In this document: positions 1,178 to 49,775 of the stretch, one piece after another
Numbering within the stretch: the first letter of the stretch is position 1
How the letters are laid out: every line of letters begins with the position of its first letter
Notes under the pieces: model-generated
The model's database searches: none
The model's input: only the letters and a program-made list of their open reading frames with translations
What the model was told of the DNA's origin: nothing
Origin: a virus
Taxonomy: Duplodnaviria > Caudoviricetes
Length of the DNA stretch: 52,332 bases
Reading direction: 5' to 3' (one strand)
Virus record (IMG/VR): IMGVR_UViG_3300023103_000007
Coordinates: 1-52,332 of that record
Program-made: the position numbers and the translations under genes

Positions 1178-2608
1178 CTCACGATATTTGTCTCCCGTGA
1201 TGGTTGAGGCGATGTCTATCTTGTCCCTCAATGCTCTTATCACTCTCTCATCTATGGTTCCTGGGACATACAGATCTGTGTATGTCACTGACTTCTTCTG
1301 CCCCACACGATGAGCCCTGTCCTCGGACTGTATTCTTGTCTCCAGGTTATATCCATTGCTGTAGTATATGACATGACTGGCGGCAGTCCAGGTGTTTCCT
1401 CTTGCTCCTGTCTCGTTGGACACTATGAACCTGCACTCTGGGTCCTCCTGGAATCTGGTGGTGGCTCTCTCCCTGTCATCCAAGGTCGTTCCACCATGGA
1501 ACTCAACCACAGACTGTGGTCCATACACCTCCCTGATCTTATGTACGATAGTGTCGATGTCTGGACGATATGCAGACCATATTATCACCTTCCCACAGCT
1601 CTCCTCTATGACCTCCATCATCGTCTCCAGTCTGTTGTTCTGGAGATAGTGTAGATTGCCCTCCTCGTCCCTGACGTGACCACACAGTATCTGGTGCATC
1701 CTGGTCATCTGCTGCATCACCTGAGTAGCTGAGACAAAACTCCCCTCCCCGATCTCAGACTGTGCAGATCTCCTCACCTCATCGTACATTCTTCTCTGCT
1801 GTGGACTCAGCTCCACCTCCCTCATCGTGTAGATCTTGGGGGGTAGATCAAGACACTCCTCCTTGGTCACTCTGTATGAGTGTGGCTTTATCCTCCTGGC
1901 AAGATCCTCAGTATCTCTGTATGCAACCGGCACCTTCACTACTCTACCACCAACATACTTCTCCTCTATCACTGCGTATCTTGCCCTGAAAGAGAAGTAG
2001 GACGAGAACCCCAGCATCCTTCTTCCCAGGAACTCAAACTGAGAGTATATGTCCAGAGGTGATCTCGTTGCTGGGGATCCAGTCATTATTCTCCTCACTG
2101 CGCAGTGTCTTGATATCTCCACAGCTCTCTTAGTCCTCGTAGATGTTGGATTCTTAATCGTGGTACTCTCATCCAGGTACACAGCTGCAGGTCCTGATGA
2201 GACATGCCTCAGGGCACACTTAAGTGCCTTGTCTCCTGATGACATAGCCTCGATATTCATTATCAACACATATGGTCTGTCGCTGTTGAGCAACTTATTT
2301 AGTTTCACCTGATGAGCAGAAGACCCCCCTCCTGGTCTCCACTCTACTATCTCACATGAACTCCTGACGCTGTCTGGCATGTGCGTGGGTATCTCCCTGA
2401 GCAGCCAGTTCATGTAAACAGCCTTTGGTGCGAGTATCAATACTCTGGTGACTGAACCTGCTAGAATCAGCTTTGACATCTCATCAATGGCAACCTTGGT
2501 CTTCCCAGCACCCATCTCCATCAGCCAGGCGAATCCCTCTCTGCCCTCTGCCTGACGCAGTGCCTCTCTCTGGTGGTTATATGGTCTAGTCTTGTACTCG
2601 TATATCAT
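1166..2608 (-). CDS. SNF2-family (SF2) helicase
   Basis: MEMGAGKT Walker A, DEST, MTGSP, and QSEDRAHRVGQ motif VI. Confidence 0.93.
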   Translation of the reverse strand: MIYEYKTRPYNHQREALRQAEGREGFAWLMEMGAGKTKVAIDEMSKLILAGSVTRVLILAPKAVYMNWLLREIPTHMPDSVRSSCEIVEWRPGGGSSAHQVKLNKLLNSDRPYVLIMNIEAMSSGDKALKCALRHVSSGPAAVYLDESTTIKNPTSTRTKRAVEISRHCAVRRIMTGSPATRSPLDIYSQFEFLGRRMLGFSSYFSFRARYAVIEEKYVGGRVVKVPVAYRDTEDLARRIKPHSYRVTKEECLDLPPKIYTMREVELSPQQRRMYDEVRRSAQSEIGEGSFVSATQVMQQMTRMHQILCGHVRDEEGNLHYLQNNRLETMMEVIEESCGKVIIWSAYRPDIDTIVHKIREVYGPQSVVEFHGGTTLDDRERATTRFQEDPECRFIVSNETGARGNTWTAASHVIYYSNGYNLETRIQSEDRAHRVGQKKSVTYTDLYVPGTIDERVIRALRDKIDIASTITGDKYREWLI

Positions 2609-2629
2609 CTATGTATCTCCCTTGTCGAC

Positions 2630-2658
2630 AGTATAGCTCGGGGGTTACTGTGGCACAA
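2630..2658 (-). promoter_or_regulatory. Candidate promoter of the SNF2 helicase
   Basis: TTGTGC-N17-TATACT, followed by RBS AAGGGAG before ATG 2608. Confidence 0.45.
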
Positions 2659-2771
2659 TATGCGCGATAGTCGGGGGTTACCGTGAAGGTATTGTTTTAG
2701 AACTCACACTGATCAGGCAATAGGGAAGTAATATGTTGCAAACCCCTACAGTGCTTGTGTATGCATCCTTG

Positions 2772-2848
2772 TGCTATTAGTATATTACTTATAACGTGAG
2801 AATTTTATAAAAGTTAGCCTCGCGGGCGCGCACGTGAGTAAGTAATAG
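2772..2848 (+). repeat. AT-rich plus CG-rich element, copy A (origin-like; inverted copy at 27591-27673)
   Basis: Blocks shared in inverted orientation: TGCTATTAGTATATTACTTATAACG (24/25), TTAGCCTCGCGGGCGCG (17/17) and TAAGTAATAG (10/10). Confidence 0.85.
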
Positions 2849-2871
2849 TTTACTAGGTTCAATTCTTACGC

Positions 2872-4387: not shown

Positions 4388-4407
4388 GGGGAGGGACACC
4401 CCTCCCC
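4388..4407 (+). terminator. Intergenic hairpin (weak terminator or processing site)
   Basis: GGGGAGGG-ACAC-CCCTCCCC with no U-tract; contains the CCCTCCCCG motif. Confidence 0.4.
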
Positions 4408-4434
4408 GATCGCCCTATCTCACAGTGAGGAATC

Positions 4435-7763: not shown

Positions 7764-7792
7764 TTTACATTCTTGCCCAGATGGGCTATACT
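7764..7792 (+). promoter_or_regulatory. Phage promoter (TTTAC family)
   Basis: TTTACA-N17-TATACT. Confidence 0.7.
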
Positions 7793-7796
7793 CACT

Positions 7797-9251: not shown

Positions 9252-10238
9252 ATGGAGATGCACGAGGATGTCTGGCAGAGAGGTGTGGAGAGGTTCTTTG
9301 CCTACGCAAGGGAGAGACATAGTATATACCTGAGAAGACAGCGTGGTGTTCCCAGGAGTGACTGGACCAGTGATCCCATACTCCAGAAGTACAGGTTCAC
9401 CAATGTATTCAGGGAGATAGACGCCACAACTGTGTGGTTCAGGGAGAACGTCAGGAAACACCTGAGCTCCTCCCCCGATGTACTTCTCGCCACTGTTCTT
9501 TTCAGGTGGTTCAATCGCATCAGGACGGGAGAGGCAATATTCTCCCAGACAAGATTAGACACTGAGACACCAGGAGCTACTGCCTGGGATGAGTTAGTAG
9601 GGTCATCCAGCACTGAGGTTGTGAGGTCATCTGTTCTGCAGTACTGCGGGGGAGGACCATACGTCACTGGTGCATACATCATAAAGACTCCTGACGGACT
9701 GGACAAGCTGAGTGGTGTACTCAGGTGTGTTGAGTGGTTCATGACACAGTCCCAGAAGGTCGGGGAGGGTAGGTTTGGTGATGCACTACTGGATCAGGGG
9801 GAGATGAGTCGCATGTTGTCTCGTGAGCCCGGCAGACACTCTCTTGAGTTTGTCTGGGACTGGCTGAGGAGATTCCCATATATGGGTGACTTCATGGCCT
9901 ATGAGGTTGTCACTGACCTGAGGCACACTGACCTGCTGTACGATGCTCCTGACATAATGACCTGGGCCAATCCGGGACCAGGAGCTACGCGAGGGGCAGG
10001 ACGTGTCGTGTCTGGTTATCATGAGGTGTTCAGGAAGTCCAGCAGAGACAGGCAGGAGGTCATGTCTGTAATGAGCAAGCTGCTGAGTCTCAGCAGGAAG
10101 CCTGAGTACTGGCCTCAGGAGGACAGGGAAAGCTGGTCTGTGTGGGAGATGAGGGACGTGGAGCACACACTCTGTGAGTTCGACAAGTATGAGCGTGTAC
10201 GTCTCGGGCAGGGAAGACCAAGAGGGGTGTACAGATGA
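9252..10238 (+). CDS. 5-hmdU DNA kinase (aGPT-Pplase1 / HMUDK family)
   Basis: ERHSIYLRR...WTSDPILQKYRFTNVFRE.D, FRWFN, GDFMAYEVVTDL, NPGPGA.RG, EHTLCEFDKY. Confidence 0.85.
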   Translation: MEMHEDVWQRGVERFFAYARERHSIYLRRQRGVPRSDWTSDPILQKYRFTNVFREIDATTVWFRENVRKHLSSSPDVLLATVLFRWFNRIRTGEAIFSQTRLDTETPGATAWDELVGSSSTEVVRSSVLQYCGGGPYVTGAYIIKTPDGLDKLSGVLRCVEWFMTQSQKVGEGRFGDALLDQGEMSRMLSREPGRHSLEFVWDWLRRFPYMGDFMAYEVVTDLRHTDLLYDAPDIMTWANPGPGATRGAGRVVSGYHEVFRKSSRDRQEVMSVMSKLLSLSRKPEYWPQEDRESWSVWEMRDVEHTLCEFDKYERVRLGQGRPRGVYR

Positions 10239-13398: not shown

Positions 13399-13949
13399 TG
13401 GGAGTACTGGACAGTGACAGGGAGAGTGTCACCTACTCTCTTCGGGGAGCGGGGGAGGTGCAGAGGTACCACACCTGGCCAACTATCAGGCGGCAGAGTG
13501 TTGGTGAGCACACCTGGCAGGTGATGAGGATATGGCTCCAGGTGTTTGGTCCCATGTCTCCTGAGGTGAGTACTGCCATACTTCTTCATGATGCTGGGGA
13601 GAGGGTGACAGGTGACATGCCATTCCCATTCAAGAGAGAGGTTCCTGGTCTCAAGGAGATCATGGATGCTGCAGAGGTTGCTGCTCTGCAGAGGATGCTC
13701 GGTGACAGGTGGGAGGACATCTCTGTCCTCACCGACTATGAGAGGATGCAGCTCAAGATCTGCGACCTGATAGAGATGGCTGAGTTCGGAAGCACAGAGG
13801 TCATGATGGGTAACAGGTATGCAGAGACTATTGTTGACTGCACCCTACAGTCAGCTCTGGAAATATGCAGCTCCCTCCCCGATCACCTGTCCTCCTCTGT
13901 CATGTCGTATCTTGATAGTGTCTCTGGTATTATTGTGGAGAACATCTAG
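13395..13949 (+). CDS. HD-domain (YfbR-like) deoxynucleotide phosphohydrolase
   Basis: VQRYH, QSVGEH, LLHDAGE..TGD.P, LKICD. Confidence 0.85.
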   Translation: MMGVLDSDRESVTYSLRGAGEVQRYHTWPTIRRQSVGEHTWQVMRIWLQVFGPMSPEVSTAILLHDAGERVTGDMPFPFKREVPGLKEIMDAAEVAALQRMLGDRWEDISVLTDYERMQLKICDLIEMAEFGSTEVMMGNRYAETIVDCTLQSALEICSSLPDHLSSSVMSYLDSVSGIIVENI

Positions 13950-14752: not shown

Positions 14753-14753
14753 G

Positions 14754-15766: not shown

Positions 15767-17755
15767 ATGGCAAGGAAGCCATCATACACAGGACAGATGC
15801 CACTCTTTAAACCAGAGAGTAGCTGGCAGGTTCCCACTGAGCTGCCGGACCTGAGGGGCGCAGAGCTACTGGCTCTCGACACAGAGACCAGGGACGATGG
15901 ACTGAGCTCCGGAAGAGGACCAGGCTGGGCTACCGGCGCGGGGAGGATCGTGGGAGTATCTGTGGCGGTGACAGGCAGGTCATGGTACATACCAGTGGCT
16001 CACCCAGAGACCCAGTGCTTCGACAGGGAGGCCGTGGGTCGGTGGCTCGGCGACCTGATCAGCAGCGCTGGAGCCTGTGTGTTCCAGAATGCACCCTATG
16101 ATCTCGGCTGGCTCAGGAGGGAGTGGGGCATCTCCCCTCCCCGACAGGTGCACGACACTGTGGCTCTTGCCTATATGCTGGATGAGAATCGCCTCACCTA
16201 TCGTCTGGATGATCTCTGCAGGTGGCAGGGAGTCCCAGGAAAGGATGAGACTGGTCTCCGTGAGGCGGCTGCGGCCTATGGTGTGGACCCAAAGGCTGAG
16301 CTCTGGAGGCTTCCTGCTCGGTACGTAGGTTCCTACGCAGAGAGGGATGCTGAGTCCTGTCTTGAGCTGTTCCACAAGTTTCATCCTCAGGTTGTGGAGC
16401 AGGGTCTGACTGATGCCTATCAGCTGGAGATGGACCTCATTCCCATGATTCTGGAGATGAGGTGGCGTGGTGTCTGCATAGACATGTCTGCGGCTGAGCA
16501 GGTGAGGGGTGAGATGCAGTCCCTGGTGGACCAGAAGCTTGCTGAGATTGCGAGGAACCTGGGATCCTCTCGCCCTGTCGACATGAAAGACGTGAGGTCC
16601 CCAGCATGGCTCGAGAGAACCTTTACTCAGGAGGGGGTTCCCTTCAGCAGAACACCCAAGACAGGGAGAGGATCCTTTGAGTCTAAGTGGATGTCGAAGT
16701 TTGATCACTGGCTCCCCCGGCTGGTCTCACAGGCGACTATGCTTCACGATGCTGGTGAGAAGTTCATACGACAGTACATCATGGATTTTACCCACATGGG
16801 TCGTCTACACGCAGAGATACACCAGTTCCGTGGGGAGGAGCGGGGAGGGACGCGCAGCTATCGGTTGGCATACTCCAATCCTCCCCTGCAGCAGATGCCG
16901 GCTCGTGTGCCGGAGATCTCCAGGGCTATTCGTGGTCTGTTCCTGCCGGAGTCTGGAGACCTGTGGGCTGCTCTCGACTATAGTCAGCAGGAGTATAGAC
17001 TCATTGCTCACTTTGCTGCTGTCTGCAGGATGACTGGAGCTGATGAGGCTGTCGCCAGGTACGAGGAGAATCCCAACACTGACTTCCACCAGATGGTTGC
17101 TGACATGGCTCAGATACCGAGGAAGCAGGCAAAGAACATAAACTTCGGCATCGCGTATGGTGAGGGTAAGCACAAGCTCGCAGCTGACCTGGGTGTTCCG
17201 CTGGACGAGGCAGTGAGACTTCTGGAGTCTGTCGACAGCAACGCACCATTCGTGCGCAGACTGTCAGAGTTCTGCTCCAAGCGTGCTGAGCAGCGAGGAT
17301 ACATAAAGCTGCTCGATGGTGCTCGATCCAGGTTCGATGACTGGGAGCCAAGGTGGAGGGATAGGACAGCAGAGAGTGAGAGTAGACTACCATGCAATCC
17401 CTGCTCTCTGGATGAGGCTCGCAGGAGGATCGCAGACCCACAGCACCCCTGGTCAGGCAAACTGAAGAGAGCCTTTACACACAAGTCCATGAACAGACTT
17501 ATACAGGGCTCAGCTGCTCGTCAGACAAAGAGGGCTATGTTGGCCTGCTGGCGCGAGGGTATCATACCTCTCCTGCAGATGCACGACGAGCTTGACTTCT
17601 CAGTTGGTGATGAGACCATGGCTCGTCGTGCACAGCAGATAATGGTGGAGACAGTCCCCCTCATGGTGCCTGTTGTCGTTGACGCAGAGTTCGGTAGGAG
17701 CTGGGGTGAGGCCACTCACTCAGAGTGGTTGTCAGCTCTTGCCAGTGTCTCCTGA
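15767..17755 (+). CDS. polA: DNA polymerase family A with 3'-5' exonuclease
   Basis: ALDTET, QNAPYD, YAERDA exo motifs; DYSQQEYR (A), RKQAKNINFGIAYG (B), MHDEL (C). Confidence 0.95.
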   Translation: MARKPSYTGQMPLFKPESSWQVPTELPDLRGAELLALDTETRDDGLSSGRGPGWATGAGRIVGVSVAVTGRSWYIPVAHPETQCFDREAVGRWLGDLISSAGACVFQNAPYDLGWLRREWGISPPRQVHDTVALAYMLDENRLTYRLDDLCRWQGVPGKDETGLREAAAAYGVDPKAELWRLPARYVGSYAERDAESCLELFHKFHPQVVEQGLTDAYQLEMDLIPMILEMRWRGVCIDMSAAEQVRGEMQSLVDQKLAEIARNLGSSRPVDMKDVRSPAWLERTFTQEGVPFSRTPKTGRGSFESKWMSKFDHWLPRLVSQATMLHDAGEKFIRQYIMDFTHMGRLHAEIHQFRGEERGGTRSYRLAYSNPPLQQMPARVPEISRAIRGLFLPESGDLWAALDYSQQEYRLIAHFAAVCRMTGADEAVARYEENPNTDFHQMVADMAQIPRKQAKNINFGIAYGEGKHKLAADLGVPLDEAVRLLESVDSNAPFVRRLSEFCSKRAEQRGYIKLLDGARSRFDDWEPRWRDRTAESESRLPCNPCSLDEARRRIADPQHPWSGKLKRAFTHKSMNRLIQGSAARQTKRAMLACWREGIIPLLQMHDELDFSVGDETMARRAQQIMVETVPLMVPVVVDAEFGRSWGEATHSEWLSALASVS

Positions 17756-18901: not shown

Positions 18902-19948
18902 CTAGTCGAGAGCCTCTCCAATCTTGTCACTGAGGGACTCAAGAGAGTTCCTGAGGGTGTCCAGCTCATCCTCGCTGAGGACAGACTGCTTCCTAATACT
19001 CTCACGAATCTCGTCTATCTCATCACGGACATCAGAGAGAGTAACTGTACTTCTACTCACCTGGTTGTAATAGTGTGCTGGAGGTTGCAGCTTAGGTATG
19101 ACGTCATCACCCTCATAGTGCATATCCCTAGCCACCCGCTTGACTCTCTCACTGGCATAGTCCCAGTCAATAGTGCTCTCCCAGCTGTCTCGTGCAGCAA
19201 CAGCAGTCCTGATCACCCCCTCCGGACAGTCGTATCGAGACAGCTGGGAGACTACACAGTACGCTGCAGTCCACTGGGATGCCAGTGTTCTGTCCTCAGT
19301 CAGGGTCATATCAGTCAGGAAGTTGTACGTATGTCGTGATGGCTTCTCAAGATCACACACACGAATTCCACGATAGTACAAGTGTTGGCTCTCTCCCTCC
19401 AGTATCTGCAAGTCCCTCTCTCCCTCATATAGCACAGCCCTACTCTCTTGAAGAAAGACTGACTCCTCACCCTCAGCAATCTCGGCGAACCCCTCCCCGA
19501 TCACCCTGATGACTGTCTGTCCTGACACAAGCGGTGAGGGGGTCTGTGTGCTGCTGTGTACAGATGTGCTACCATTCTCGTCTAGAGTATTACTCTGTAG
19601 CTCACGAAATGCCTGCCACAGCTTCCAGTGCTTTCCCAGCTCAGTCGTGAAGGGGAGGGACTCATACTGCCACTTGGAGAGTAGTCCTGAGCGTCTCTTC
19701 ATGCGAACATGACTGAACTCTGCTCCGCGGAAGCTGTCGCTCTTGGTGTACAGCACATACTCCACGCCATCTATGTTCATCTCCACCTGTCCTCCGTGAC
19801 GTAGGATGACGGCGATGGCGTACTTGAGGCCAGTGCCGAACTGACCTATTGGGCTCCTGGTGCATGGCTTGGCACTCATCCCGAAGGTGGTTATGGCGCG
19901 TATGTCCAGCGACCCTGGTGTGGTGAACTCAGTGTATCTCTCAGTCAT
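18902..19948 (-). CDS. GHKL/HATPase-like ATPase with permuted motif order
   Basis: IGQFGTGLK (G2 box) precedes RELQSNTLDE (N box). Confidence 0.7.
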   Translation of the reverse strand: MTERYTEFTTPGSLDIRAITTFGMSAKPCTRSPIGQFGTGLKYAIAVILRHGGQVEMNIDGVEYVLYTKSDSFRGAEFSHVRMKRRSGLLSKWQYESLPFTTELGKHWKLWQAFRELQSNTLDENGSTSVHSSTQTPSPLVSGQTVIRVIGEGFAEIAEGEESVFLQESRAVLYEGERDLQILEGESQHLYYRGIRVCDLEKPSRHTYNFLTDMTLTEDRTLASQWTAAYCVVSQLSRYDCPEGVIRTAVAARDSWESTIDWDYASERVKRVARDMHYEGDDVIPKLQPPAHYYNQVSRSTVTLSDVRDEIDEIRESIRKQSVLSEDELDTLRNSLESLSDKIGEALD

Positions 19949-20976: not shown

Positions 20977-21531
20977 CTATACACCATTGTCGTCAGGAAG
21001 TAAACCCCTCATCCTGATGTACTCCCTCTGCCGCCTCATCTCCTGCCTGGACAGAGAGTGACACTGCTGCAGAGCCCAGCCACCACGACGATGACCAACA
21101 CTCAGGATCATCCCCCCCGCGCTCCTCAGGATGGCGAGAGCCTCCTTCTCTGTCGGGGAGGGGTCTCTTGTCCCTGGCTCCTGCCACCTCGAGCCGCTGC
21201 TGTGGTTCGTGATGGGTGTGCGAAGCTCACTCCTGATCATCTGCAGAGCCCACATGGACTCACTGTGCAGGACCACCTCCTCCAGAGCTACTGGGATCCC
21301 CAGGGAGACCACCCACTGCAGCCCAAGGACTACCGCCCAGAGCTCCGCCTGGTTGCTACTGGTGAGGACGGCAGGTATCCTGCCACTCGTCCTCTGCCCG
21401 TAGCACAGAGCTGCCCACCCTGCGGCTCCTGTCCGGGGACAGTACGAGGCTCCAGTGACCACACTCAGCACGGCTGCAGTCCCGTGTGAGCTGATATCTC
21501 CTGCAGTGTCCTGGCTGAGCAGAAGTGCCAC
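20977..21531 (-). CDS. RNase HI-fold protein with degenerate catalytic residues
   Basis: VTGASYCP..GAAGWA, SSNQAELWA...GL, LHSES..AL, QQCHSLSR; the start may be GTG 21468. Confidence 0.6.
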   Translation of the reverse strand: MALLLSQDTAGDISSHGTAAVLSVVTGASYCPRTGAAGWAALCYGQRTSGRIPAVLTSSNQAELWAVVLGLQWVVSLGIPVALEEVVLHSESMWALQMIRSELRTPITNHSSGSRWQEPGTRDPSPTEKEALAILRSAGGMILSVGHRRGGWALQQCHSLSRQEMRRQREYIRMRGLLPDDNGV

Positions 21532-22306: not shown

Positions 22307-22804
22307 TCACTGCTCTGGGGTGGTCGGGGAGGGATCCTGGGTCGGCTCATCGGTCGGCTGGGCTGGGTTGACCACACGAATGTGACCATGGTCCACGTTC
22401 CAGCAGAGGTCAGCACGCTGACGGAATCGGGGCTTGTCAGGCTGGAGAGCCTGAGCCCTGTCCAGGAACTCACCGACCGTCATCCCTGTTCGGTACAGGG
22501 CGAATATCTGGTGAGCCTTACTGCGAGCACGCTTCGGATTGCATGGTGCCAGCACCTCAATTACCTGATCCTCGGAGAAGTATCCCCTCCCCGCTCCCCG
22601 ACGACGCTCGTCACTCACTGTGTCGTCCAGGTCATGCAGGAACTTGTCCTCCCCAACATAGCACCCCTCTGTGTCCATCAGCTTCTGCAGTCGGCGCTCA
22701 GCTGTGTCACGGTCGCTGAACTTCTTGACTGGCCTGTCGCTCAGGGCGTTGTAGAGCTCGACTATCTTCGCCAGGCTCAGGCTGCTCAGCGGTATCTTCC
22801 TCAT
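22307..22804 (-). CDS. NPKR-domain protein 2
   Basis: N-terminal LVELYN...VKKFSDR..A.RRL-like helix; NPKRARSKAHQIFALYRTGMTVGEF...ADLCWNVDHGHIRV. Confidence 0.8.
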   Translation of the reverse strand: MRKIPLSSLSLAKIVELYNALSDRPVKKFSDRDTAERRLQKLMDTEGCYVGEDKFLHDLDDTVSDERRRGAGRGYFSEDQVIEVLAPCNPKRARSKAHQIFALYRTGMTVGEFLDRAQALQPDKPRFRQRADLCWNVDHGHIRVVNPAQPTDEPTQDPSPTTPEQ

Positions 22805-23245: not shown

Positions 23246-23580
23246 AGCCTCATCTCCATCTGTCTCACATCAACTGATGCACCACCTACACCAACCCTCG
23301 CCCACACACCAGTCCTGTGGTGCGCTGCACTCAGCAGGTCGCATGTCTCACTCAGCATCCTGCTCTCCTCATCACTCAGCCCCCTGGCCACCTCCCTCGC
23401 CCTCAGCAGATGGTGTCGGTAGCACACCCTCATCACCAACCTACTCTCATCGGACATTGGAACCCCTCCACCAAAACTACCCACCACCAGCCAGCCTCGC
23501 ACCTTGGCTGCCTCACTCAGGTGAGATCGTATCCTCACCTGTCTCATCCAGTCATCGGGGAGGGGGTGGTTCATCTCCAT
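23242..23580 (-). CDS. Hypothetical early protein
   Basis: TGATG coupling; start re-assigned to ATG 23580. Confidence 0.55.
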   Translation of the reverse strand: MEMNHPLPDDWMRQVRIRSHLSEAAKVRGWLVVGSFGGGVPMSDESRLVMRVCYRHHLLRAREVARGLSDEESRMLSETCDLLSAAHHRTGVWARVGVGGASVDVRQMEMRL

Positions 23581-24724: not shown

Positions 24725-25529
24725 GACCACAGACCACAACCTCCTGCAGTCAGCACAGGCTCCATGGTCCATCATCAGGACACCCACACTATCGTCATCA
24801 GGCACCATGCCCAGCAACAGCCCCTCCCCCGATCACCGACTCCACACCTGTCATCCCTGACTCAGGACTATGGTCCATCGTCCCCCACAGTACACCTATA
24901 GCACAGAGACAGTAGAGACACAGTACACCTACAGTACAGTACAGTATACAGGACGACGAGAATAGACGATGTAGAGTAGATCTACAGTACAGCGACAGCA
25001 CCGAGAACCACCGAAGTACACTCTCACGACAGTCACCTCACTGGTCCAGAGTCCGTCGTCCCTGTCTGCTGCAGTCAGCACCAGCTGGCTCCTACACCAC
25101 TCAGGACACTGGGGGTATCGTGACGACAGACTACGTGCGCCTGCCCACGTACGACAAGCTGTCATCATACTTGCCAGGAGACCTGGCGTCCTCGTCCACT
25201 GGTGACTCTGGGGTAGCCTCTAGGGGTAGGTCGCTCGTCCGTCGTCACGATCAGGCGAGGACAGCAGCTAATGACCCCTATTATACTAAAATATAATAAG
25301 ATAATTCATCAGGTGACTCTAACAAGGAGATGAAGATGACACAGCTGAACTGAGTGTCACTCAGGGTAAGTTGGCTGTGCTAAGTGACTAGAGACATGGT
25401 GACAGCCCATGGTCTGTGATCAACACATCATGGAGTGATCACAGGCAAGTCAGGTGAGATAAGATCAGATGGGTAATAGGGGTAGGGGGTAGGGGCGCAT
25501 TATAGGCTTGCACATAGCCGGACTCATTT

Positions 25530-26834: not shown

Positions 26835-27459
26835 CTTCTATGTACCCACGAGACAGATCATGCTTCACGTCATCCCGAGTCACCCCATCAGGACCACTCA
26901 TTGCCTCACCAACAGTCCTCCCCACCACGTACCTCTTGAACCTCTCATGTGCTGCTGTTCCTGCTCTCTTTGGGTTGTCAGCTACTCGAGTCACCACACT
27001 GTCCTCACACCAGCTGTGCTTGTGCACAGGTACTATCTTCAGTCTCTTCCTACTCCCTCCACTCCTCTCACTCTCACTCTCACTCTCACTGCCACCAGTC
27101 CCCTCACTCCCTCTCCCGTCATCACTATCGGCCACACCATCACTCGCAGCTATGAATCCCCCAGTAGCATCCAGACAGAGTTCAGCTATCCTCACCCCAT
27201 CAGTGGTTCCGTCAGACTCCAGAGCAACAAGTAGATCACTTATGTCCAGACCATGAGACACCAGCTGACTCCCGAGATCCTCAGCAGACAAAGGTTGATC
27301 GGGGGAGGGGTCTGGTCTTGCCTGATGTAGTCTCGTCTGTATGTGCATGAGGTCAGCAGTACTGAGTGACAGGAGACACCTCACGAGTCTTCCGTCATCC
27401 CTCACTGTGTACCCATCACTGACTATTCCTGATGACATCTCTCTCTCCGCATATGACAC
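26824..27459 (-). CDS. NPKR-domain protein 3
   Basis: C-terminal NPKRAGTAAHERFKRYVVGRTVGEA...DDVKHDLSRGYIEV after a Ser/Glu-rich linker. Confidence 0.75.
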   Translation of the reverse strand: MSYAEREMSSGIVSDGYTVRDDGRLVRCLLSLSTADLMHIQTRLHQARPDPSPDQPLSAEDLGSQLVSHGLDISDLLVALESDGTTDGVRIAELCLDATGGFIAASDGVADSDDGRGSEGTGGSESESESERSGGSRKRLKIVPVHKHSWCEDSVVTRVADNPKRAGTAAHERFKRYVVGRTVGEAMSGPDGVTRDDVKHDLSRGYIEVAS

Positions 27460-32688: not shown

Positions 32689-33332
32689 TGGTGTCCATGG
32701 TCGGTGATACTCTGGTTCGTGATGGCTTCTGGTCAGCTCCTCGTGAGTTTGATGGACAGAGAGTCTATATTCTTGGTGGTGGCTACACACTTCATGGGTT
32801 TGATCCCTCACCACTCAGGCAAAGCGGGGGTGTCATAGCCTGCAACAGTGCCGGTCTGACGATTGCTCCATGGGCAGATGTCCTGATCTATGGTGACGAG
32901 AGGTGGCTTGAGTGGAACGTGGACAAAATTCATCTGTTCAGTGGTCGTCACGTAGTCTCTAGGAGTCGTGTGCCTCGTTCTTCTCCACACCCAAGAGTCA
33001 GGGTGATGCATCACACCAGCCCCTCCCCCGCCCTCTCCGTGTCTCCCTCATCCCTCTCAGGTCACTGCACGGGAGGGAGTGCTATAAACCTGGCATTCTT
33101 GATGGGTGCTGTGGAGATTGTTCTTCTGGGATATGATATGAGACCTGGTAACTTTCATGACATGCACAGGGTTCCTCCTGAGGAGGAGCAGCATGCTCTC
33201 AGGTTTATCCCTGCTATTGAGGCTATGGCGCCTGTACTGGTGTCTCATGGGGTCAGGGTTATCAACTCCACTCCTCACAGTGAGCTCAGGTGCTTTGAGT
33301 ACATGCCGCTGAGTGAGCTGGCAGTACACTAG
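32688..33332 (+). CDS. DUF115/sialyltransferase-like Rossmann-fold transferase
   Basis: VYILGGG, IACN, ADVL..GD..W, TGGSAINLAFLMGA.EIVLLGYDM, VINST..S.L.CF. Confidence 0.6.
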   Translation: MVSMVGDTLVRDGFWSAPREFDGQRVYILGGGYTLHGFDPSPLRQSGGVIACNSAGLTIAPWADVLIYGDERWLEWNVDKIHLFSGRHVVSRSRVPRSSPHPRVRVMHHTSPSPALSVSPSSLSGHCTGGSAINLAFLMGAVEIVLLGYDMRPGNFHDMHRVPPEEEQHALRFIPAIEAMAPVLVSHGVRVINSTPHSELRCFEYMPLSELAVH

Positions 33333-36521: not shown

Positions 36522-36865
36522 GTATTCTGGATGGAGATATCAGGGATCTCTTTGGCTCTGTCTTCAGTGATATCTGGGACACAGCTCATCTCGTCAGGGT
36601 CTCTCAGGTGAGTGACGGGCGAGGAGGAGGAACAGAGACTCCCTCCCCGCCAGTGTCCGTGAGGGTGCAGTTTGATGATGACACTGACAGAGAGTCATCT
36701 GGATCAGTGAAGAGGTTCACTCGTGTTCTGGTTCTTCAGTCTGGTGTAGTGAGTGCTCCAGACACTAGCAGTTATATTATGTCTGGGTCCAGGAGACTGG
36801 CTGTTCGCAGGGTTGATGAGGATCCCGCGAGGAGTTACTGGGAGCTGGATTGTGAGGAGATGTAG
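36518..36865 (+). CDS. Head-tail adaptor/stopper
   Basis: SDGRGG and VDEDPA..YWEL; position in the neck module. Confidence 0.7.
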   Translation: MSILDGDIRDLFGSVFSDIWDTAHLVRVSQVSDGRGGGTETPSPPVSVRVQFDDDTDRESSGSVKRFTRVLVLQSGVVSAPDTSSYIMSGSRRLAVRRVDEDPARSYWELDCEEM

Positions 36866-38475: not shown

Positions 38476-40665
38476 GTGGCTGGTGGTGCCGTTGGACCAA
38501 GCGCTGATCGTGTTTTGACTATACTGGAGGCAAAGACCGAACAGTATCAGAGGAACATCAACCAGGCTAGACAGACATTCAACAGTTTCACTCAGAATGT
38601 TCAGGTTAACATCAACGTACTGAACACCCAGTTTAATAACCTCAACGCAGCTGCTGCCCGGACACAGCAGTCTTTCTCTCGTCTCAGGTCTTCTGGATCG
38701 TCTCTGTCATCTACTCTTAAGGGTATTGCTGCTGCATATATCACCCTCAACACAGTTAAGAGTGCACAGGGTCTAGTTGATACCAACATAAGAATTGTCA
38801 ACTCACTAAAGACTGCTGGTCTTGAGGGATCAGAGCTCACTCGTGTGTATGATGAGCTGTATGCCTCTGCTCAGAGAAACAGGACAGAGTTCGAGGGTAT
38901 AGCCAAACTCTACAGTAGGGTCTCTCTGGCGCAGGGGGAGCTGAAGGTAAGTACTGCTGACCTCATAACCTTCACTGATAATGTCGCTAAGGCACTGAGA
39001 GTTGCAGGAACAGATACGATCAATGCGCAGGGTGCACTCCTACAGCTAGGACAAGCACTCGGCAGCGGTACTGTGAGGGCGGAGGAGTTCAACTCTATAC
39101 TCGAGGGTTTGCTACCAATTGCTCAGACAGCTGCTAGGGGTATCAAGGAGGCTGGTGGTTCTGTGGCCCAGCTCAGGAAGTTGATGCTTGATGGTGAGGT
39201 ATCTTCTAAAGCTTTCTTCGAGGGAATACAGGCTGGGGCGTCTGGTCTTGATGAGAGACTGCAGGGTGTGGAGACGACCGTATCTGGTGCATTCACTGTA
39301 CTCAACAATGCTCTGCTCAGAGCTGCAGGTGAAATGAACAGTGGGTCTCAGGCAACTGAGGAGTTCTCCATGCAGATACAGAGACTTGCCAGGTACATTG
39401 ATAACACTAACTTCTCTGTCATTATACAGGACATAAATAACTTCATAGTTACTGTCAGTCAGGCAGCCGATAGGGTGCAGTCCCTGGTTAACTGGCTGAG
39501 TAAGCTCCCTGGTGCGGCAGCCGATGCTCTCGACATTCGAGACATTGCTCCCCAGGACAGGATAAACACTGCTTTCGAGAAGTCCGAGGGAAGTATAACA
39601 AAGAGTGTTCAGTCTGCTGCAACAGAGGGTCTCAGAGCCGCCTTCGACAAGGCAGGAGGAGAGAAGTTTGGACCAAATAGTCCGACACCAAACGACAGGA
39701 TTGGTGCGACGTTCGGTGATCTTCAGGGACCTAAGAGAACAATCAGCATAAAGGACTACCCATCAACAGATAGTAAGGGATCAAAGAAGAAAAAAGGTCC
39801 CAGAGACAGAGTTGATTCGTACGAGGACACAACTCTAGACACTGAGTCTCTCGAGCAGGAGTATCAGGCGAGACTTAAGTTGAATCCTCTTCTAGGAAGC
39901 TACCGAGAGAGTCTCATAAAGATACAGCGAGAGCAGCAGCTACTCAATGATCTGCAGAGGGACAATGTCGAGATAACTCCGGAGATCAGGGAGAAGGTGT
40001 CTGGTCTGGCGACAGAGTATGCTCGGGCAGAGGTCGCTCTCAGTGACCTAAGTGACACACAGGATGCCGTCAACAAGCGACTTCTTGAGGTCAGGGAGTT
40101 CAGTAAGGACACCACTCGCGGCATAGTTGATGGTCTTCTAGCTGGCAAGGACGCAGCTGAAGTCTTTGGTGAAGCTTTAAATAAATTGGGTCAAAAATTC
40201 TTAGATCTTGCTTTCGACAGTGCTTTCGATAAAGGTGGTTTATTAGAGAAATTGTTCAAGGGTGGTAGCGGAGGAACAGGTGGTGGACCTCTTGCTTTCA
40301 TTGGTAAATTATTTGGATTTAAGTCTGGGGGATATACTGGGGCAGGTTCACCCAATGCTCCTGCAGGAGTAGTACACAAGGACGAGTACGTATTCGACAA
40401 GAGAGCAGTAGACAGGATTGGTGTTGCCAACCTTGATGCCATGCGTAGGGGCATGAGGGGATATCAGTCTGGCGGCATGGTCACCACACCCTCCCTCCCC
40501 CGATCACCCTCCCCGTCTCAGGGATCAGTCACCTTTGGCGGTATCGTGACCAATATAAACATTGAGGGTAGTGCTGATCGCAGGACACTTGCTCTTACTG
40601 CTGCACAGATAGCAGAGAATAACAGACAGATTCTCTATCAGCAGAAGAATCAGTGGAGGTCCTGA
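38476..40665 (+). CDS. Tape measure protein
   Basis: LYSRV, QLGQALGSG.VRAEEFNSILE; C-terminal GGYTG...PAGVVHKDEYV. Confidence 0.92.
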   Translation: MAGGAVGPSADRVLTILEAKTEQYQRNINQARQTFNSFTQNVQVNINVLNTQFNNLNAAAARTQQSFSRLRSSGSSLSSTLKGIAAAYITLNTVKSAQGLVDTNIRIVNSLKTAGLEGSELTRVYDELYASAQRNRTEFEGIAKLYSRVSLAQGELKVSTADLITFTDNVAKALRVAGTDTINAQGALLQLGQALGSGTVRAEEFNSILEGLLPIAQTAARGIKEAGGSVAQLRKLMLDGEVSSKAFFEGIQAGASGLDERLQGVETTVSGAFTVLNNALLRAAGEMNSGSQATEEFSMQIQRLARYIDNTNFSVIIQDINNFIVTVSQAADRVQSLVNWLSKLPGAAADALDIRDIAPQDRINTAFEKSEGSITKSVQSAATEGLRAAFDKAGGEKFGPNSPTPNDRIGATFGDLQGPKRTISIKDYPSTDSKGSKKKKGPRDRVDSYEDTTLDTESLEQEYQARLKLNPLLGSYRESLIKIQREQQLLNDLQRDNVEITPEIREKVSGLATEYARAEVALSDLSDTQDAVNKRLLEVREFSKDTTRGIVDGLLAGKDAAEVFGEALNKLGQKFLDLAFDSAFDKGGLLEKLFKGGSGGTGGGPLAFIGKLFGFKSGGYTGAGSPNAPAGVVHKDEYVFDKRAVDRIGVANLDAMRRGMRGYQSGGMVTTPSLPRSPSPSQGSVTFGGIVTNINIEGSADRRTLALTAAQIAENNRQILYQQKNQWRS

Positions 40666-42331: not shown

Positions 42332-45141
42332 TGCCTCAGGCTCTTGTTGGTCTCATTGTAGCAGCTGGTGTTCCTGGTCTCGTGACTGCTGCTGGTACAC
42401 TCACTCTTGCTGGTACACTCACATCATTCGCCATAGGTGTTGGTCTGTCTCTTGCTGGGAGTGCTCTTCTTGCTGCTGCTCAGAAGACACCCAAGCCACA
42501 GGATGTGCAGAATACTCTCAGGCAGCCAGTACCCCCTAGAATGAGGTACTATGGAAGACATAGGGTGGGTGGATCACTCATGGCCATAGAGACCTGGCAG
42601 GGGAACCTGTATCAGGTCATCGCCCACTCTCAGGGTCTTCTGGATGGTGTTGAGGGATATATAATCGACAACAGGTCAGTCACCACTGACTCCAGTGGTA
42701 ACGTCACGTCAAGACCATACCCGCGAACAGTCAGCGTTGGGAACCCAGTGCGGGTGAGGTGTGTCACGTATCCGGGAACTGCCTCACAGCTGGCGGATCC
42801 CGACATGATGACTCGGTTTCCTGATCTCTGGACAGAGTATCACAGGCTGCGTGGAGTGTGCTACACTGTGTTTACTGCTGCACGTGTGAAGTCTGAGTAC
42901 TTCATAAATGTCTATCCAACAGGTATACCTAAACTTAATGTTGATGCCAGGTTCAGCAGGGTGTTTGACCCCAGGGATCCCACACAGTCTAGGTCTGACC
43001 AATCAACGTGGAAGTATACCACCAATCTCGCTCTCCAGTTTGCAGACTACCTCACTCACCCTGATGGCATGCAGATAGACTGGTCCATGATAGACGAGGA
43101 CAGGCTCTCCACGGCTGCTGACGTGTGTGACGAAGTTCTCACCACTAAGTCAGGATCGTCTGTCCTCAGGTATCACGGTGGGCTCTCATACTCTCTCACC
43201 TCTGAGCCAAGAGAGGTGGTGGATAGGTTCCTCTTCTCCATGGATGGCAGGTTGTCTCTTCTTCCGTCTGGTAAGATAGCTGTGGATGCTGGCAAGTGGG
43301 TGGAGCCAGTGGTTCATGTTGAGGACAGGCACATCTGCTCCTTCGAACTCACTGACAGCTCTGGTCCACTGTCTGAGGCAAATGAGATAATCATTAAATA
43401 TACGTTTGAGGAGGCTAACTTCTCCGAGACGACCTGTGATCCCTGGAGAGATGATGACCTGATCAGTCAGTACGGTGAGGTGAAGACCAAGGACTTTGAG
43501 GCATTTGAGATAAGAAGCCACAACCATGCAAGACGGATAGCCAAGATCTTGTCAGAGAGACTGAGTCCTCGATGGTCTGGGACTATCGTCACCAACCTGT
43601 TTGGTATGAAGTGCTACGACCAGAGGTGGATCCTACTCAGTATTGACAGTCTGGGCATAGAGGCAGAGACATTCGAGATACTGAGTTTCACTGAGAGCTT
43701 CCTGGACGGAAGAGTTGTCATGGAGGTTGCCTCCTTCCGCGAGGAGATCTACAACTTTGATCCTGCCACTGAGGAGGGAACAGCCCCCACAGCCCCCGAG
43801 CTACTGGAGGAGAGCGATGTCACTCCTCCTGAGGGGATTGAGGCAGAGACTGTGCTGGTTACTGGAGGTTACTCTGTCATAAGAGTCTCATGGGATGCGC
43901 AGAGGAATGACTACAGTGTACAGGTGCAGTATGCCATAGCGAACTCCGGACAGTGGCAGGCTGTCGCAGTATCCGACAACTCTACATCAGTTGACATATA
44001 TAGTCTTATTGATGGTGAGGAGTATGATGTACAGGTCAGGAACATTGCTGCATCAGGTACACCGTCCACCTGGGTCACTCTGGAGGACATACAGTACATC
44101 GGCAACCCCTCCCCGCCTGGGTCTCCGACATCACTTAGTGTCTCATCCTCAGGTGCCGATGTCGTTGTCACCTGGATAACTCCCAACAGCCAGTCCTTCA
44201 GTAGGAGTCGGCTCTACAGGGCACCAGCAGGATCCCCCCTTGGGTCGGCAGCTGATATATCTGGGTCTCTGTTCGGGTCACCTAACCAGTCAGTGACTTA
44301 TATTGACAGTCCGCCATATGGTAGTTATGACTACTGGGTTGTTGCTGAGAATGCGTCTGGAGTGCAGTCTTCTCCTACTGGACCAGTTAGCCTCTCGGGA
44401 GGGGTGCAGCCTGAGACTTCTGCTCTTCTGGCGAGGATGACAGTGCAGCCTTCATCTGCGAGAAGGAACCTGATAGATGAGCTGATCTCCTCACTCAAGA
44501 GCGCAGGTGTGTGGTCCAAGCTCAACACTCTCTATGTCTATGCAGCACACTCTCAGCAGGCCTCTCTCCTTAACTGGAGATCATCCTCCTACGACAGCTC
44601 AGCACTGGGCTCTCCTGTCTTCACTGCCGACAGGGGCTTTGCTCTGTCGAGTGGATCCAGCATAGACACTACTATGAACCCGTCAACTGCTGGAGCACCA
44701 TACACACAGAACTCTGCGCACTTTGGTTTGTGGAGCAGAACATCTGGACAGTTCACTGGCTATGAGCTTGGATCCACAGCCTCTGCAGCATCTAACTACT
44801 CGTACGTGAGGCTGCGCTCCACCTCGGACACACTGGGTGCCAGGATCAATGACCTGACTGCACTTACAGTGACTGGAGTCACTGATGCCTCAGGCCACAC
44901 TGTGGTGAACAGGAGTGGAGCCACCGCGAGGCAGGTCTTTAAGAATGGCGTTCAGGTGTTCAGTGATAGTGTGGCCTCATCTGGTCTCACGAACTCCAGC
45001 ACTCACGTTGGCAGGATGTCGACAACATACACAGACAGACAGATAGCCGCTGCACATACTGGTGGGTCACTCACTGCAGGAGAGGCAGATGCTCTGTATG
45101 ATGCTCTGTACACCTACATGTCTGCAGTTGGTGCTGCCTGA
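42331..45141 (+). CDS. Central tail/host-specificity protein with FN3 repeats and a C-terminal lectin-like domain
   Basis: YG..RVGG, HRLRGVCY, VFDPR, N.AL..ADYL; FN3-like YDVQVR and YDYWVVAEN. Confidence 0.85.
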   Translation: MPQALVGLIVAAGVPGLVTAAGTLTLAGTLTSFAIGVGLSLAGSALLAAAQKTPKPQDVQNTLRQPVPPRMRYYGRHRVGGSLMAIETWQGNLYQVIAHSQGLLDGVEGYIIDNRSVTTDSSGNVTSRPYPRTVSVGNPVRVRCVTYPGTASQLADPDMMTRFPDLWTEYHRLRGVCYTVFTAARVKSEYFINVYPTGIPKLNVDARFSRVFDPRDPTQSRSDQSTWKYTTNLALQFADYLTHPDGMQIDWSMIDEDRLSTAADVCDEVLTTKSGSSVLRYHGGLSYSLTSEPREVVDRFLFSMDGRLSLLPSGKIAVDAGKWVEPVVHVEDRHICSFELTDSSGPLSEANEIIIKYTFEEANFSETTCDPWRDDDLISQYGEVKTKDFEAFEIRSHNHARRIAKILSERLSPRWSGTIVTNLFGMKCYDQRWILLSIDSLGIEAETFEILSFTESFLDGRVVMEVASFREEIYNFDPATEEGTAPTAPELLEESDVTPPEGIEAETVLVTGGYSVIRVSWDAQRNDYSVQVQYAIANSGQWQAVAVSDNSTSVDIYSLIDGEEYDVQVRNIAASGTPSTWVTLEDIQYIGNPSPPGSPTSLSVSSSGADVVVTWITPNSQSFSRSRLYRAPAGSPLGSAADISGSLFGSPNQSVTYIDSPPYGSYDYWVVAENASGVQSSPTGPVSLSGGVQPETSALLARMTVQPSSARRNLIDELISSLKSAGVWSKLNTLYVYAAHSQQASLLNWRSSSYDSSALGSPVFTADRGFALSSGSSIDTTMNPSTAGAPYTQNSAHFGLWSRTSGQFTGYELGSTASAASNYSYVRLRSTSDTLGARINDLTALTVTGVTDASGHTVVNRSGATARQVFKNGVQVFSDSVASSGLTNSSTHVGRMSTTYTDRQIAAAHTGGSLTAGEADALYDALYTYMSAVGAA

Positions 45142-48378: not shown

Positions 48379-48388
48379 GGAAAAACCC

Positions 48389-48601
48389 ATGATACTATCT
48401 AAAGACGAAACACAGGTAGGATTTATAGAATTGTCTAAACTGGAGGGTTTAGACAAACAGATAGAGGTCTACTTAGATGACAAATTGATCGAAGATTGGA
48501 TATCTGTTGACACTAATAAAGAAACAGTTACAACAGATGAAGGAGAGTTTTCAGGTAAAGTTGAAATTAATATAATTGACAACTCATTCCCTATGGATTA
48601 A
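48389..48601 (+). CDS. Small acidic protein
   Basis: AAGGA RBS; AT-rich module. Confidence 0.6.
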   Translation: MILSKDETQVGFIELSKLEGLDKQIEVYLDDKLIEDWISVDTNKETVTTDEGEFSGKVEINIIDNSFPMD

Positions 48602-48612
48602 GGAGAAAAACC

Positions 48613-49470
48613 ATGAAAGAAAATTTCAACAGATTATTAAAATTAGTTTTAGTCCACGAAGGTGGTAAGGTGGACGATCCTAGAGACCCAGGAGGGCGTA
48701 CAAATCAAGGCGTAACCCAGAGAACATTTGATGCTTACTTAAGTGTAAGACACCAACAACATAGGGACGTATTTACTTTAACCGACGCAGAAAGAGACGA
48801 GATATATCAAATACAATACTGGAACAAAACCCAATCCACCTCCCTCCCCGATGGCGTCGATTATGTGGTCTTTGATGCAGCTGTACACTCTGGCCCAGCA
48901 CAAGCAGCTAAGTGGTTACAAAGAGCAGTAGGATCAAATCCTGATGGCGTAATCGGGGAGAGGACTGTTGCTGCCGTGTATGCTAGTCGTAATATAGCTG
49001 ATATTATTAATTCTGTGTGCGATCAAAGACTAACCATGATGAAACGTCTTCCTACTTGGAAAACTTATGGTAAGGGTTGGACACGTAGAGTAGAAGAAGT
49101 TAGGAGATTAGCTCTGGAGCTCGCTGGAGGAAGGGAGATTACGCCATCTAGTAGGGTAGAGGAGGCACACTCGAAGGCAGCCTCGAAGGATGCAGTACCC
49201 TCTCCAGCCCGTGCTCCGGGGGACATAGCGATAGGGGTGGGGACAACTCTCCTCACGGCCTCTCCTCTGGGTCTTGCGATAGCCGAGGCAACTGACACCC
49301 TGAGGCCTCTTGTGAGTGCTCTTCCTTCTGTTGGCTACATAGTTACTGGCCTCACTCTTGTCGGTGTGGCTGCTGCTGCTGCTGGCTCGCTCTACAGAGT
49401 GTGGGCTGCTCGGAGGACTAGAGAGATTGCCAGCGATCTTGGAGTAGAGAACCCAGAGGTGATAGTATGA
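48613..49470 (+). CDS. Endolysin (GH108 lysozyme, PG-binding domain, hydrophobic C-terminus)
   Basis: HEGG..D.P.DPGG.TN.GVT, IY..QYW, FDAAVHSG, YGKGWTRRV. Confidence 0.92.
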   Translation: MKENFNRLLKLVLVHEGGKVDDPRDPGGRTNQGVTQRTFDAYLSVRHQQHRDVFTLTDAERDEIYQIQYWNKTQSTSLPDGVDYVVFDAAVHSGPAQAAKWLQRAVGSNPDGVIGERTVAAVYASRNIADIINSVCDQRLTMMKRLPTWKTYGKGWTRRVEEVRRLALELAGGREITPSSRVEEAHSKAASKDAVPSPARAPGDIAIGVGTTLLTASPLGLAIAEATDTLRPLVSALPSVGYIVTGLTLVGVAAAAAGSLYRVWAARRTREIASDLGVENPEVIV

Positions 49471-49775
49471 CATGGAGGCAGTCGAGACCATACGTGATCG
49501 TTGTCCTGGTGACGGCTGCTGTCCTCACACTCTCTGTCGTTTCTCGTCATCTATACAGGTCGTCCTACATCAGCGGATACAACTCAGCCGTCACCAGGAC
49601 AGCGATCACCCTGGAGAGGCTCAGTGTTCCCTGTGGTGACGGAGTGTCCGTCAGGGTGAGGATAGCCCAGGTGGTCTCCGACATATGCACCAGCTCACCT
49701 GATCCCATGTCCTGTCTGAACTCCTCAGGAGCAGCCTCTCACCACAACCCCCTCCCCGCTGCCCGCGAGGACTGA
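49467..49775 (+). CDS. Membrane-anchored lysis-module protein (spanin-like?)
   Basis: N-terminal TM, Y..GY, Cys-containing tail; directly after the endolysin. Confidence 0.4.
   Translation: MTWRQSRPYVIVVLVTAAVLTLSVVSRHLYRSSYISGYNSAVTRTAITLERLSVPCGDGVSVRVRIAQVVSDICTSSPDPMSCLNSSGAASHHNPLPAARED

Follow-up and report, generated by a model that had tools for sequence, protein, structure and literature searches.

A nine-base C-run word dispersed through an uncultured tailed-phage genome: a probable selected DNA signal with sister words in related phages

The 9-mer CCCTCCCCG occurs 17 times in the phage record IMGVR_UViG_3300023103_000007 of IMG/VR, which was analysed entire (52,332 bases, classed as linear, CheckV completeness estimate 83%) and is called the window below (G000 among the genomes compared). 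Together with a sister word carrying a run of five Cs, CCTCCCCCG, it is very probably a positively selected signal at the DNA level, which belongs to the phage lineage rather than to a host and is tied to a replication and thymidine-hypermodification module. This module comprises SNF2, gp33-like and gp34-like proteins, an AEP primase, a UvrD-like helicase, a 5-hydroxymethyldeoxyuridine (5-hmdU) DNA kinase, a TET-associated glycosyltransferase (TAGT), a thymidylate-synthase-like (TS-like) protein, an HD protein and PolA. It is well supported that phages bearing the module keep some 8 to 17 dispersed copies each of a word of the type "C-run then G", on both strands, in any frame and mostly where the proteins tolerate change. 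The phenomenon is a family trait with co-varying word classes, and in this respect it is stronger than was known to the original prediction, an earlier note made from the letters of the window.

That note had listed 17 exact copies, 12 on the plus strand and five on the minus strand, and all of them were recovered with the same coordinates and strands. The exact copies of CCCTCCCCG are as follows.

1743..1751, +, antisense in the SNF2 gene, variable region
4400..4408, +, intergenic between the gp34-like and primase genes; 3' arm of the hairpin GGGGAGGG-ACAC-CCCTCCCC
9761..9769, -, antisense in the 5-hmdU DNA kinase gene, indel-rich region
13873..13881, +, sense, phase 1, HD-domain gene
16135..16143, +, sense, phase 2, variable region of PolA
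16841..16849, -, antisense in PolA, conserved peptide RGGT
19491..19499, +, antisense in open reading frame (ORF) 18902-19948(-)
21154..21162, -, sense, phase 0 (PSP), RNase H-like ORF
22325..22333, -, sense, overlapping ORFs 21850-22473 and 22307-22804
22585..22593, +, antisense in ORF 22307-22804(-)
23556..23564, -, sense, phase 1, ORF 23242-23640(-)
25695..25703, +, antisense in the conserved ORF 25530-25970(-)
36641..36649, +, sense, phase 0, head-tail ORF
40507..40515, +, sense, tape-measure gene
44107..44115, +, sense, tail protein 42331-45141
48842..48850, +, sense, GH108 endolysin gene
49750..49758, +, sense, ORF 49467-49775

The copies of the C5 form CCTCCCCCG are as follows.

9469..9477, +
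9647..9655, -
13450..13458, -
24823..24831, + (the variant at 24822 of the earlier note, plus G)
27300..27308, - (the earlier variant 27300 on the minus strand)
33022..33030, + (the earlier variant 33021)
40494..40502, + (the earlier variant 40493)

Under an order-3 Markov model, 0.32 copies of CCCTCCCCG are expected. It is the highest-scoring 9-mer of the window, enriched about 50-fold and present at a density of 325 per Mb. Shuffles that preserved the dinucleotides contained 0.27 copies on average and three at most, and 17 were reached in none of 100. The original prediction had also asked whether the enrichment would disappear once codons and amino acids are kept in the null. It does not: in 1000 synonymous-codon shuffles, the mean was 1.87 and the maximum seven, against 17 observed. 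These shuffles were done within each gene of a set guided by strand blocks, with the protein sequence and the codon usage kept, and the mean counts the single intergenic copy, which was left untouched. Sixteen copies are coding, in a proteome with only 51 peptide positions where the word could be encoded.

The sister word CCTCCCCCG was found seven times against 0.22 expected, and the sites with one mismatch to CCCTCCCCG number 25 against about 10.8 (2.3-fold). Of seven one-off variants proposed earlier, six were found to within one base (10790, 24822, 27301 on the minus strand, 30335, 33021 and 40493) and four proved to be copies of CCTCCCCCG; at 46283, nothing lies within one mismatch, the nearest site being at 46677 on the minus strand. 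The flanks of the 17 copies are alike only at position -1 (C or T) and at +1 to +2, where the AT or AC that had been noticed follows 11 of them; by this comparison, the copies are not parts of a longer repeat. The scarcity of CG holds as well, with a CpG observed/expected ratio of 0.48. Since CCGG (0.23) and GGCC (0.27) are also depleted, the retention of a word that contains CG is the more striking. The 3-kb island in which the note saw none is matched by the absence of exact copies from 46-48 kb (37% G+C).

The copies near which a hairpin partner of at least seven of nine bases was found number 7 of 17, no excess over the 5.2 at random positions (p = 0.25). The only copy in a clear hairpin is that at 4400, and at the same spot between the gp34-like and primase genes, the relatives carry GC-rich hairpins unrelated to that of the window. 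The spacing of copies was indistinguishable from random in eight of nine genomes, the exception being G017, a phage described below (p = 0.004).

The word is used on sense and antisense strands, as had been stated: 10 copies are sense, six are antisense and one is intergenic. Every codon phase is represented among the coding copies, which encode PSP, LP, PP, GEG, RGG or GRG. Six copies in conserved genes were examined, and four of these lie in variable or indel-rich segments (SNF2, the 5-hmdU kinase, the HD protein and PolA at residue 124); the other two lie at conserved peptides that happen to permit the word, RGGT in PolA and RRGG in ORF 25530. The excess over shuffles, the use of all phases and both orientations, and the location mostly in variable protein regions indicate that selection acts on the DNA and not on the protein. 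The proposal of a selected cis-signal about once every 3 kb is thereby upheld, as it survives the codon-preserving null, is indifferent to phase and orientation, and recurs as the same or a sister word in related phages.

No close relative of the window was found. PolA matches reached at most 57% identity (viral_contigs, metagenome_contigs) and TerL matches at most 53% (IMG/VR), and the query with the major capsid protein gave no match; nearer homologues of gp34 do exist, at 58% identity. Fifteen records were analysed entire, the window and 14 retrieved via PolA. A syntenic module from SNF2 to PolA is common to the window and 10 of the 11 longer relatives, at 26-61% amino-acid identity; G011, a near-copy of G009, was left out of this mapping. 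The structural genes of these relatives are mostly unrelated to those of the window. The genes concerned lie in the replication arm of the window as follows.

1166-2608, -, SNF2 helicase gene
2921-3550, +, gene of the gp33-like protein (PF23984; Pam3 gp33-like)
3550-4377, +, gene of the gp34-like protein (PF23977; Pam3 gp34-like), probably the phage's single-stranded DNA-binding protein (SSB) and the candidate reader of the word
4435-5958, +, AEP-type primase gene, the candidate enzyme acting at the word
6253-7755, UvrD-like helicase gene
9252-10238, 5-hmdU DNA kinase (HMUDK) gene
11298-12104, TAGT gene
12418-13398, TS-like gene
15767-17755, PolA gene

In 10 of the 15 PolA-related records (G009 and G011 being near-identical), the top-ranked 9-mer contains CCCCG, and a word containing CCCCG ranks 15th in G002 and 12th in G007. 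Of 28 loci (12-21 kb) that are related through TerL only and served as controls, one has CCCCG in its top 9-mer, a comparison that is rough because these loci are shorter. Three word classes were distinguished across the family (counts as observed/expected).

Class A, CCCTCCCCG: the window, 17/0.32; G012, 10/0.26
Class B, CTCCCCCGC, also CCCCCGCC: G001, G004, G002, G005 and G003
Class C, C4-6GG: G010, CTCCCCGG, 15/1.42; G006, TCCCCCCGG, 12/0.49; G009, CCCCCGGAC, 14/0.52; G007, CTCCCCGG, 12/2.24

C4-6 followed by G is common to all classes, and most of the differences are on the side whose copying would come later. Codon-preserving shuffles left a clear excess in G012 (10 vs 1.4), G010 (9 vs 0.8), G006 (12 vs 2.1), G009 (14 vs 1.3) and G001 (8 vs 0.8), and a weaker one in G004, G002, G005 and G003, the shuffle maximum of G003 being equal to the observed count. 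The words of the relatives were picked afterwards as top scorers, which makes the individual p-values optimistic, and the argument rests on the recurrence of the same type of word. In the relatives, the 8-14 copies are intragenic, in all phases and both orientations, with a strand split near 1:1. Their positions are mostly not orthologous among distant relatives; it is the density that is conserved rather than the position. Departures from this are seen at UvrD residues 377-395 and, in the ORF 25530 homologue, at residues 25-28, where a C-run is compatible with the conserved peptides.

The link between gp34 and the word was put to a prediction test, in which IMG/VR was searched with an alignment of class-A gp34 and the new genomes were expected to carry CCCTCCCCG. 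G016 and G017, which are of the same phage type, hold 8 and 10 copies, and G019 holds nine; in all three, CCCTCCCCG is the first- or second-ranked 9-mer. The 18-kb fragment G020 holds a single copy and is uninformative; its gp34 is almost the same as the one in G012. Of the three new phages that are independent and large enough to be of use, two bear the prediction out (the G016/G017 type and G019) and the third, G018, does not. One further genome with a class-B gp34, G426 (39 kb), is a weak case, with CCCCCGCC at 11 vs 1.46 expected. Nothing earlier on these words in phages, or on over-represented phage primase sites, was found in the full-text literature searched.

The word does not appear to come from a host. 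A total of 406 bacterial genomes were searched, of which 401 belong to the Pseudomonadota (the phylum of a TerL-bearing Novosphingobium) and five are others; one of the 401 (G408) is unpublished, and the enrichment result is independent of it. None of the 406 shows CCCTCCCCG at a phage-like density or in large excess over a reversed-word control. The two densest genomes have about 73-82 copies per Mb, where the reversed word is equally frequent in one and about 1.6 times less frequent in the other, and the greatest margin over this control is about 5-fold, in a genome with 38 copies per Mb. Moreover, the CpG ratio is 0.48 in the window vs 1.13-1.18 in the class-A genomes G012, G016, G017 and G019, and the class-B genomes span 54-65% G+C. 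The maintenance of the same word despite such differences in dinucleotide make-up and G+C argues against a word set by the host. A host-wide iterated word, of the kind of DNA uptake sequences or HIP1, would abound in the host and also in its unrelated phages; the 406 genomes gave no sign of this, and in 80 TerL-related loci of IMG/VR, no enrichment of CCCTCCCCG was seen, except for four copies in a locus of 65% G+C (L079).

The clades of the gp34-like protein match the word classes, which makes this protein the candidate reader. The gp34 proteins of the window and G012 are 48% identical, and each is at most 35% identical to all others. In a maximum-likelihood tree of gp34, class A and class B form clades with 100/100 support each, on stems of 1.1 (A) and 1.3 (B) changes per site. 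The trees of AEP and PolA set apart class C only, and the PolA data reject the monophyly of the class-A genomes (approximately unbiased test, p = 0.0006). The gp33-like protein follows the classes more weakly than gp34. SNF2 and the NPKR proteins (a paralogous set described below) are conserved, but their similarity does not track the classes.

The predicted fold of gp34, based on an alignment of 31 sequences, is beta-rich and modelled with confidence (pLDDT 88.7, pTM 0.82). It has no solved relative, and neither gp34 nor gp33 has a sequence match in the PDB; the gp33-like protein is predicted to consist of a long helix and a small domain, a fold that likewise has no PDB match. The best fold matches of gp34 are weak and are OB-fold binders of single strands: RPA chains (E = 6e-3 to 3e-2), BRCA2-DSS1-ssDNA, CST and hSSB. 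A search of BFVD showed that the gp34 fold is widespread among phages, all matches being uncharacterised proteins, and an Atlas search for gp34 and gp33 returned the same Pfam families only. The C-terminus of gp34 is an acidic tip, DDDIPV (family consensus DxDIPI), which we take to resemble the tail of bacterial SSB. As none of the other ORFs scanned in the window was recognised as an SSB, gp34 is probably the SSB of the phage. With its acidic tip and its modelled fold, PF23977 is probably a previously unrecognised family of phage SSBs. No prior description of Pam3 gp34 was found in the full-text literature searched.

From these comparisons of sequence, it may tentatively be proposed that the word is a priming or replisome-loading site that is read on single-stranded DNA during replication. 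The C-rich strand would be read 3' to 5' as 3'-G-CCCC-T-CCC-5', the invariant G 3' of the C-run being left uncopied as a "cryptic" base. The primer would be started opposite the last C and begin with pppGGGG, while the SSB-like gp34, whose gene adjoins that of the primase, might help to read the word or recruit the primase. The primases known so far begin synthesis opposite a pyrimidine whose 3' neighbour they require but do not copy, their sites being 5'-GTC-3' for T7 (gene 4), GTT/GCT for T4, 5'-CTG-3' for DnaG and GTG for pRN1 ORF904. The shared C4-6 followed by G, the class differences on the later-copied side and the match of gp34 clades to word classes would all fit priming. A more specific version, which we regard as distinctly unlikely, is that these phages use sequence-addressed priming, in which gp34 as an SSB-like OB-fold protein (perhaps with gp33) would recognise the C-run word on single-stranded DNA and recruit the AEP primase. 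Recruitment at the word would require the genome to carry it every few kb on both strands. If this were true, a change of the reader protein would lead to the rewriting of the whole genome to a new word, a phage-private replication code, and such a code could let the replisome function even where the DNA is heavily modified, or keep it away from host DNA.

Several observations weigh against a signal that is tied to this module and read through gp34 for priming. G018 has a class-A gp34 and yet only one copy of CCCTCCCCG and no dispersed word. Cultured phages with a 5-hmdU kinase belong to the Mesyanzhinovviridae, and a strong C-run-G word is absent from the five that were examined (Ab18, PaMx11, Epa5, PhiJL001 and PAE1); Ab18 has only CACCCCGG, at 17 vs 2.2 expected. 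The primase tree fails to separate classes A and B, and the primase of the window is nearer to the class-B primases (53-61% identity) than to that of G012 (50%). The word classes need two changes on the PolA tree, the same number as on the gp34 tree; the association with gp34 rests on about two events, and the link could therefore reflect an exchanged gp33-gp34 cassette. None of the gp34 fold matches in the PDB is significant (best E = 6.4e-3, TM at most 0.26). Finally, known primases need only about three bases, and a requirement for nine would be unusual to our knowledge.

Other readings of the word have to be set against priming. The original prediction had suggested a Chi- or KOPS-like signal, that is, a polar word read by an end-entering helicase-nuclease or translocase of host or phage, for which orientation matters. 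The G-rich strand does contain GGGGAGGG, which fits the E. coli KOPS consensus, GGGNAGGG; the class B and C words (GCGGGGGAG, GTCCGGGGG, CCGGGGGGA) do not. Polarity was examined in 12 genomes with a permutation test for a two-arc strand pattern on a circle. The arc of plus-strand copies that had been noted in the window is there, since the eight copies that follow one another from 25.7 kb onward, past the contig end and up to 4.4 kb, all lie on the plus strand, but it is not beyond chance (p = 0.83). The other p-values were 0.29 in G012, 0.07 in G017, 0.39 in G019, 0.03 in G010, 0.15 in G006 and about 0.6 to 1 in the remaining six; p < 0.05 was obtained in one of 12 genomes, and a hand-made Fisher combination of the 12 values gives about 0.6. 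The two-arc patterns of G017 and G010 notwithstanding, polarity is not significant, and a reading of the Chi or KOPS type is not supported by it, nor by the 406 bacterial genomes. In addition, the window encodes a T7 gp5.9-like RecBCD-inhibitor domain (ORF 14733-15119, plus strand, 128 residues; N-terminal match at residues 13-53, E = 8e-16), which would make mimicry of a host Chi unnecessary. A polar signal is very unlikely, although one may act in some lineages. Less credible still, indeed barely so, is a functionless by-product of mutation bias, repair bias or composition. The variable length of the C-run (C4 and C5 in the window) and the enrichment of one-mismatch forms would fit slippage or decay, but one 9-mer stands out sharply, being enriched about 50-fold vs about 2-fold for its neighbours, and the enrichment persists in a CpG-depleted genome, is class-specific among relatives with similar polymerases and survives the codon-preserving shuffles.

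The remaining explanations concern proteins that would act on the word in other ways, and each of the three is unlikely. A phage nickase might cut it in mature or replicating DNA, as happens at the nick sites of tf, T5 and phiKMV-like phages. In form, phage tf offers the nearest parallel; there, the 9-mer TACTGTGAC and two variants occupy 14 sites in 46 kb, all nicked, with 8-9 copies in relatives and a nick-site consensus of 5'-TACT/RTGMC-3' (PMC3517423). The window, with 17 copies in 52 kb, and its relatives, with 8-14, come close to this in number and density. Even in these model phages, the biological role of the nick sites is described as unknown (PMC3517423). However, a single strand carries all the nick sites in tf, T5 and the phiKMV-like phages, against 12:5 in the window and nearly 1:1 in its relatives; also, no nickase was recognised among the ORFs scanned in the window. 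It is just as doubtful that the word is a landmark for thymidine hypermodification, with its single T (in the context CTC) modified differently or left unmodified, or with the word as the place where the 5-hmdU kinase or the glycosyltransferase loads. The word does travel with the module of HMUDK, TAGT, TS-like, dCTP-deaminase-like and HD proteins. However, a modification target needs no over-representation, the C-run is not preceded by a T in the class C word of G009 (ACCCCCGGAC), the examined cultured relatives bearing the kinase are without the word, and the similarity of HMUDK and TAGT does not track the word classes as that of gp34 does. A comparably low probability is given to the reading that a DNA-binding protein of the phage lands at the word on double-stranded DNA, which would serve genome organisation, protection or the loading of an SNF2 or UvrD motor; the NPKR paralogues, gp33 and SNF2 would be the candidates. 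Dispersal in both orientations, the keeping of density rather than position, and the conservation of two NPKR paralogues and SNF2 across the family are all in its favour. Against it stand the failure of NPKR and SNF2 similarity to follow the classes and the absence of a demonstrated DNA-binding fold in the candidate proteins, gp33 having no PDB match.

Words of other kinds are also repeated in these phages. In G018 (L247), the top word is a 9-base unit, GGGTTCCAC, of which about seven copies form a coding tandem array at ~63,490-63,560. AT-rich repeats dominate the k-mer lists of G002 (TTATTGGATT, nine copies) and G007 (AACTAATA, 10 copies), and these are probably regulatory repeats. The Pseudomonas phages Ab18 (W01), Epa5 (W03) and PaMx11 (W05) have about 140 copies each of GCCCAGG vs about 50 expected.

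The window itself is a tailed phage, in which ORF family matches delineate a replication and hypermodification arm and a structural arm. A single public sequencing run was found to contain its sequence, a leaf litter metagenome (the probable source) that is kept as contigs. From its gene families, read together with PMC8989533, the genome is predicted to be thymidine-hypermodified. The replication arm further encodes a dCTP-deaminase-like protein, an HD phosphohydrolase and TerB, and between its genes lie tRNA-Met(CAT) at 8514-8590 and tRNA-Arg(CCT) at 8676-8752 on the plus strand; in G010, a tRNA-like sequence is located between the gp34 and primase genes. The ORF with the gp5.9-like domain has no homologue among the 14 related records. 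Three paralogous ORFs without a Pfam match, 7773-8504 (+), 22307-22804 (-) and 26824-27459 (-), have the C-terminal segment NPKRxG(T/S)xAHxxFxxYxxG in common, and two of the three are conserved across the related records.

The second arm comprises the terminase, a portal protein fused to Acb1, the major capsid protein, the tape measure and the GH108 endolysin. In the portal ORF 29651-31501 (+), Phage_portal_3 (residues 57-401) is followed by a C-terminal Acb1 anti-CBASS phosphodiesterase (residues 470-612, E = 2e-40), a counter-defence enzyme that would, to judge from this fusion, ride on the portal protein. ORF 45679-48378 (+) encodes a tail protein of 899 residues with a GDSL lipase/esterase domain; its stretch of 37% G+C at 46001-48000 is probably a recently acquired receptor-binding part. 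The dinucleotide signature of the window (52% G+C) is unusual, with CG at 0.48, TG/CA at 1.32 and AA/TT at 0.66, the CpG ratio of relatives being near 1, and the GC-rich 6-base palindromes CCCGGG, GGGCCC, CGCGCG and ACCGGT are all absent vs 14-16 expected.

Genome-wide selected words are rare in phages, and the known ones (Chi, nick sites, primase sites) mark basic DNA transactions. Here, three sister forms recur in an uncultured group of phages predicted to hypermodify their thymidines, aligned with clades of the widespread and uncharacterised family PF23977. A DNA word and its candidate reader make a concrete pairing, which may give access to the organisation of replication, or of some other DNA transaction, on hypermodified DNA. 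For recognising this phage group in metagenomes, the word is also of practical use as a marker.

Compared with known systems, the word resembles Chi and KOPS (FtsK-orienting) sequences as an over-represented G-rich 8-9-mer present about once per 3-5 kb, with class A containing GGGGAGGG, which fits GGGNAGGG; unlike these words of host genomes with their strong strand polarity, it has no significant polarity and no host-type enrichment in the 406 genomes. The cultured Mesyanzhinovviridae (Ab18, PaMx11, Epa5, PhiJL001, PAE1/YuA/M6) share with the window the 5-hmdU DNA kinase (34-48% identity) and PolA (~35%), but the top words of those examined are GCCCAGG (~140 copies, 3-fold) or AT-rich repeats. 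With the nick words of tf, T5 and phiKMV-like phages, it has in common that a short exact word occurs some 10-17 times per genome of 45-60 kb, inside genes, and is common to relatives; the difference is that physical nicks on one strand were shown there, whereas the word of the window is on both strands. Primase sites, finally, are about three bases long and need no enrichment, in contrast to a 9-base word enriched about 50-fold. As a priming site, the word would nevertheless be like them in its pyrimidine start, its essential uncopied 3' neighbour and its being needed repeatedly on both strands, and the primase gene of the window lies beside that of the candidate reader.

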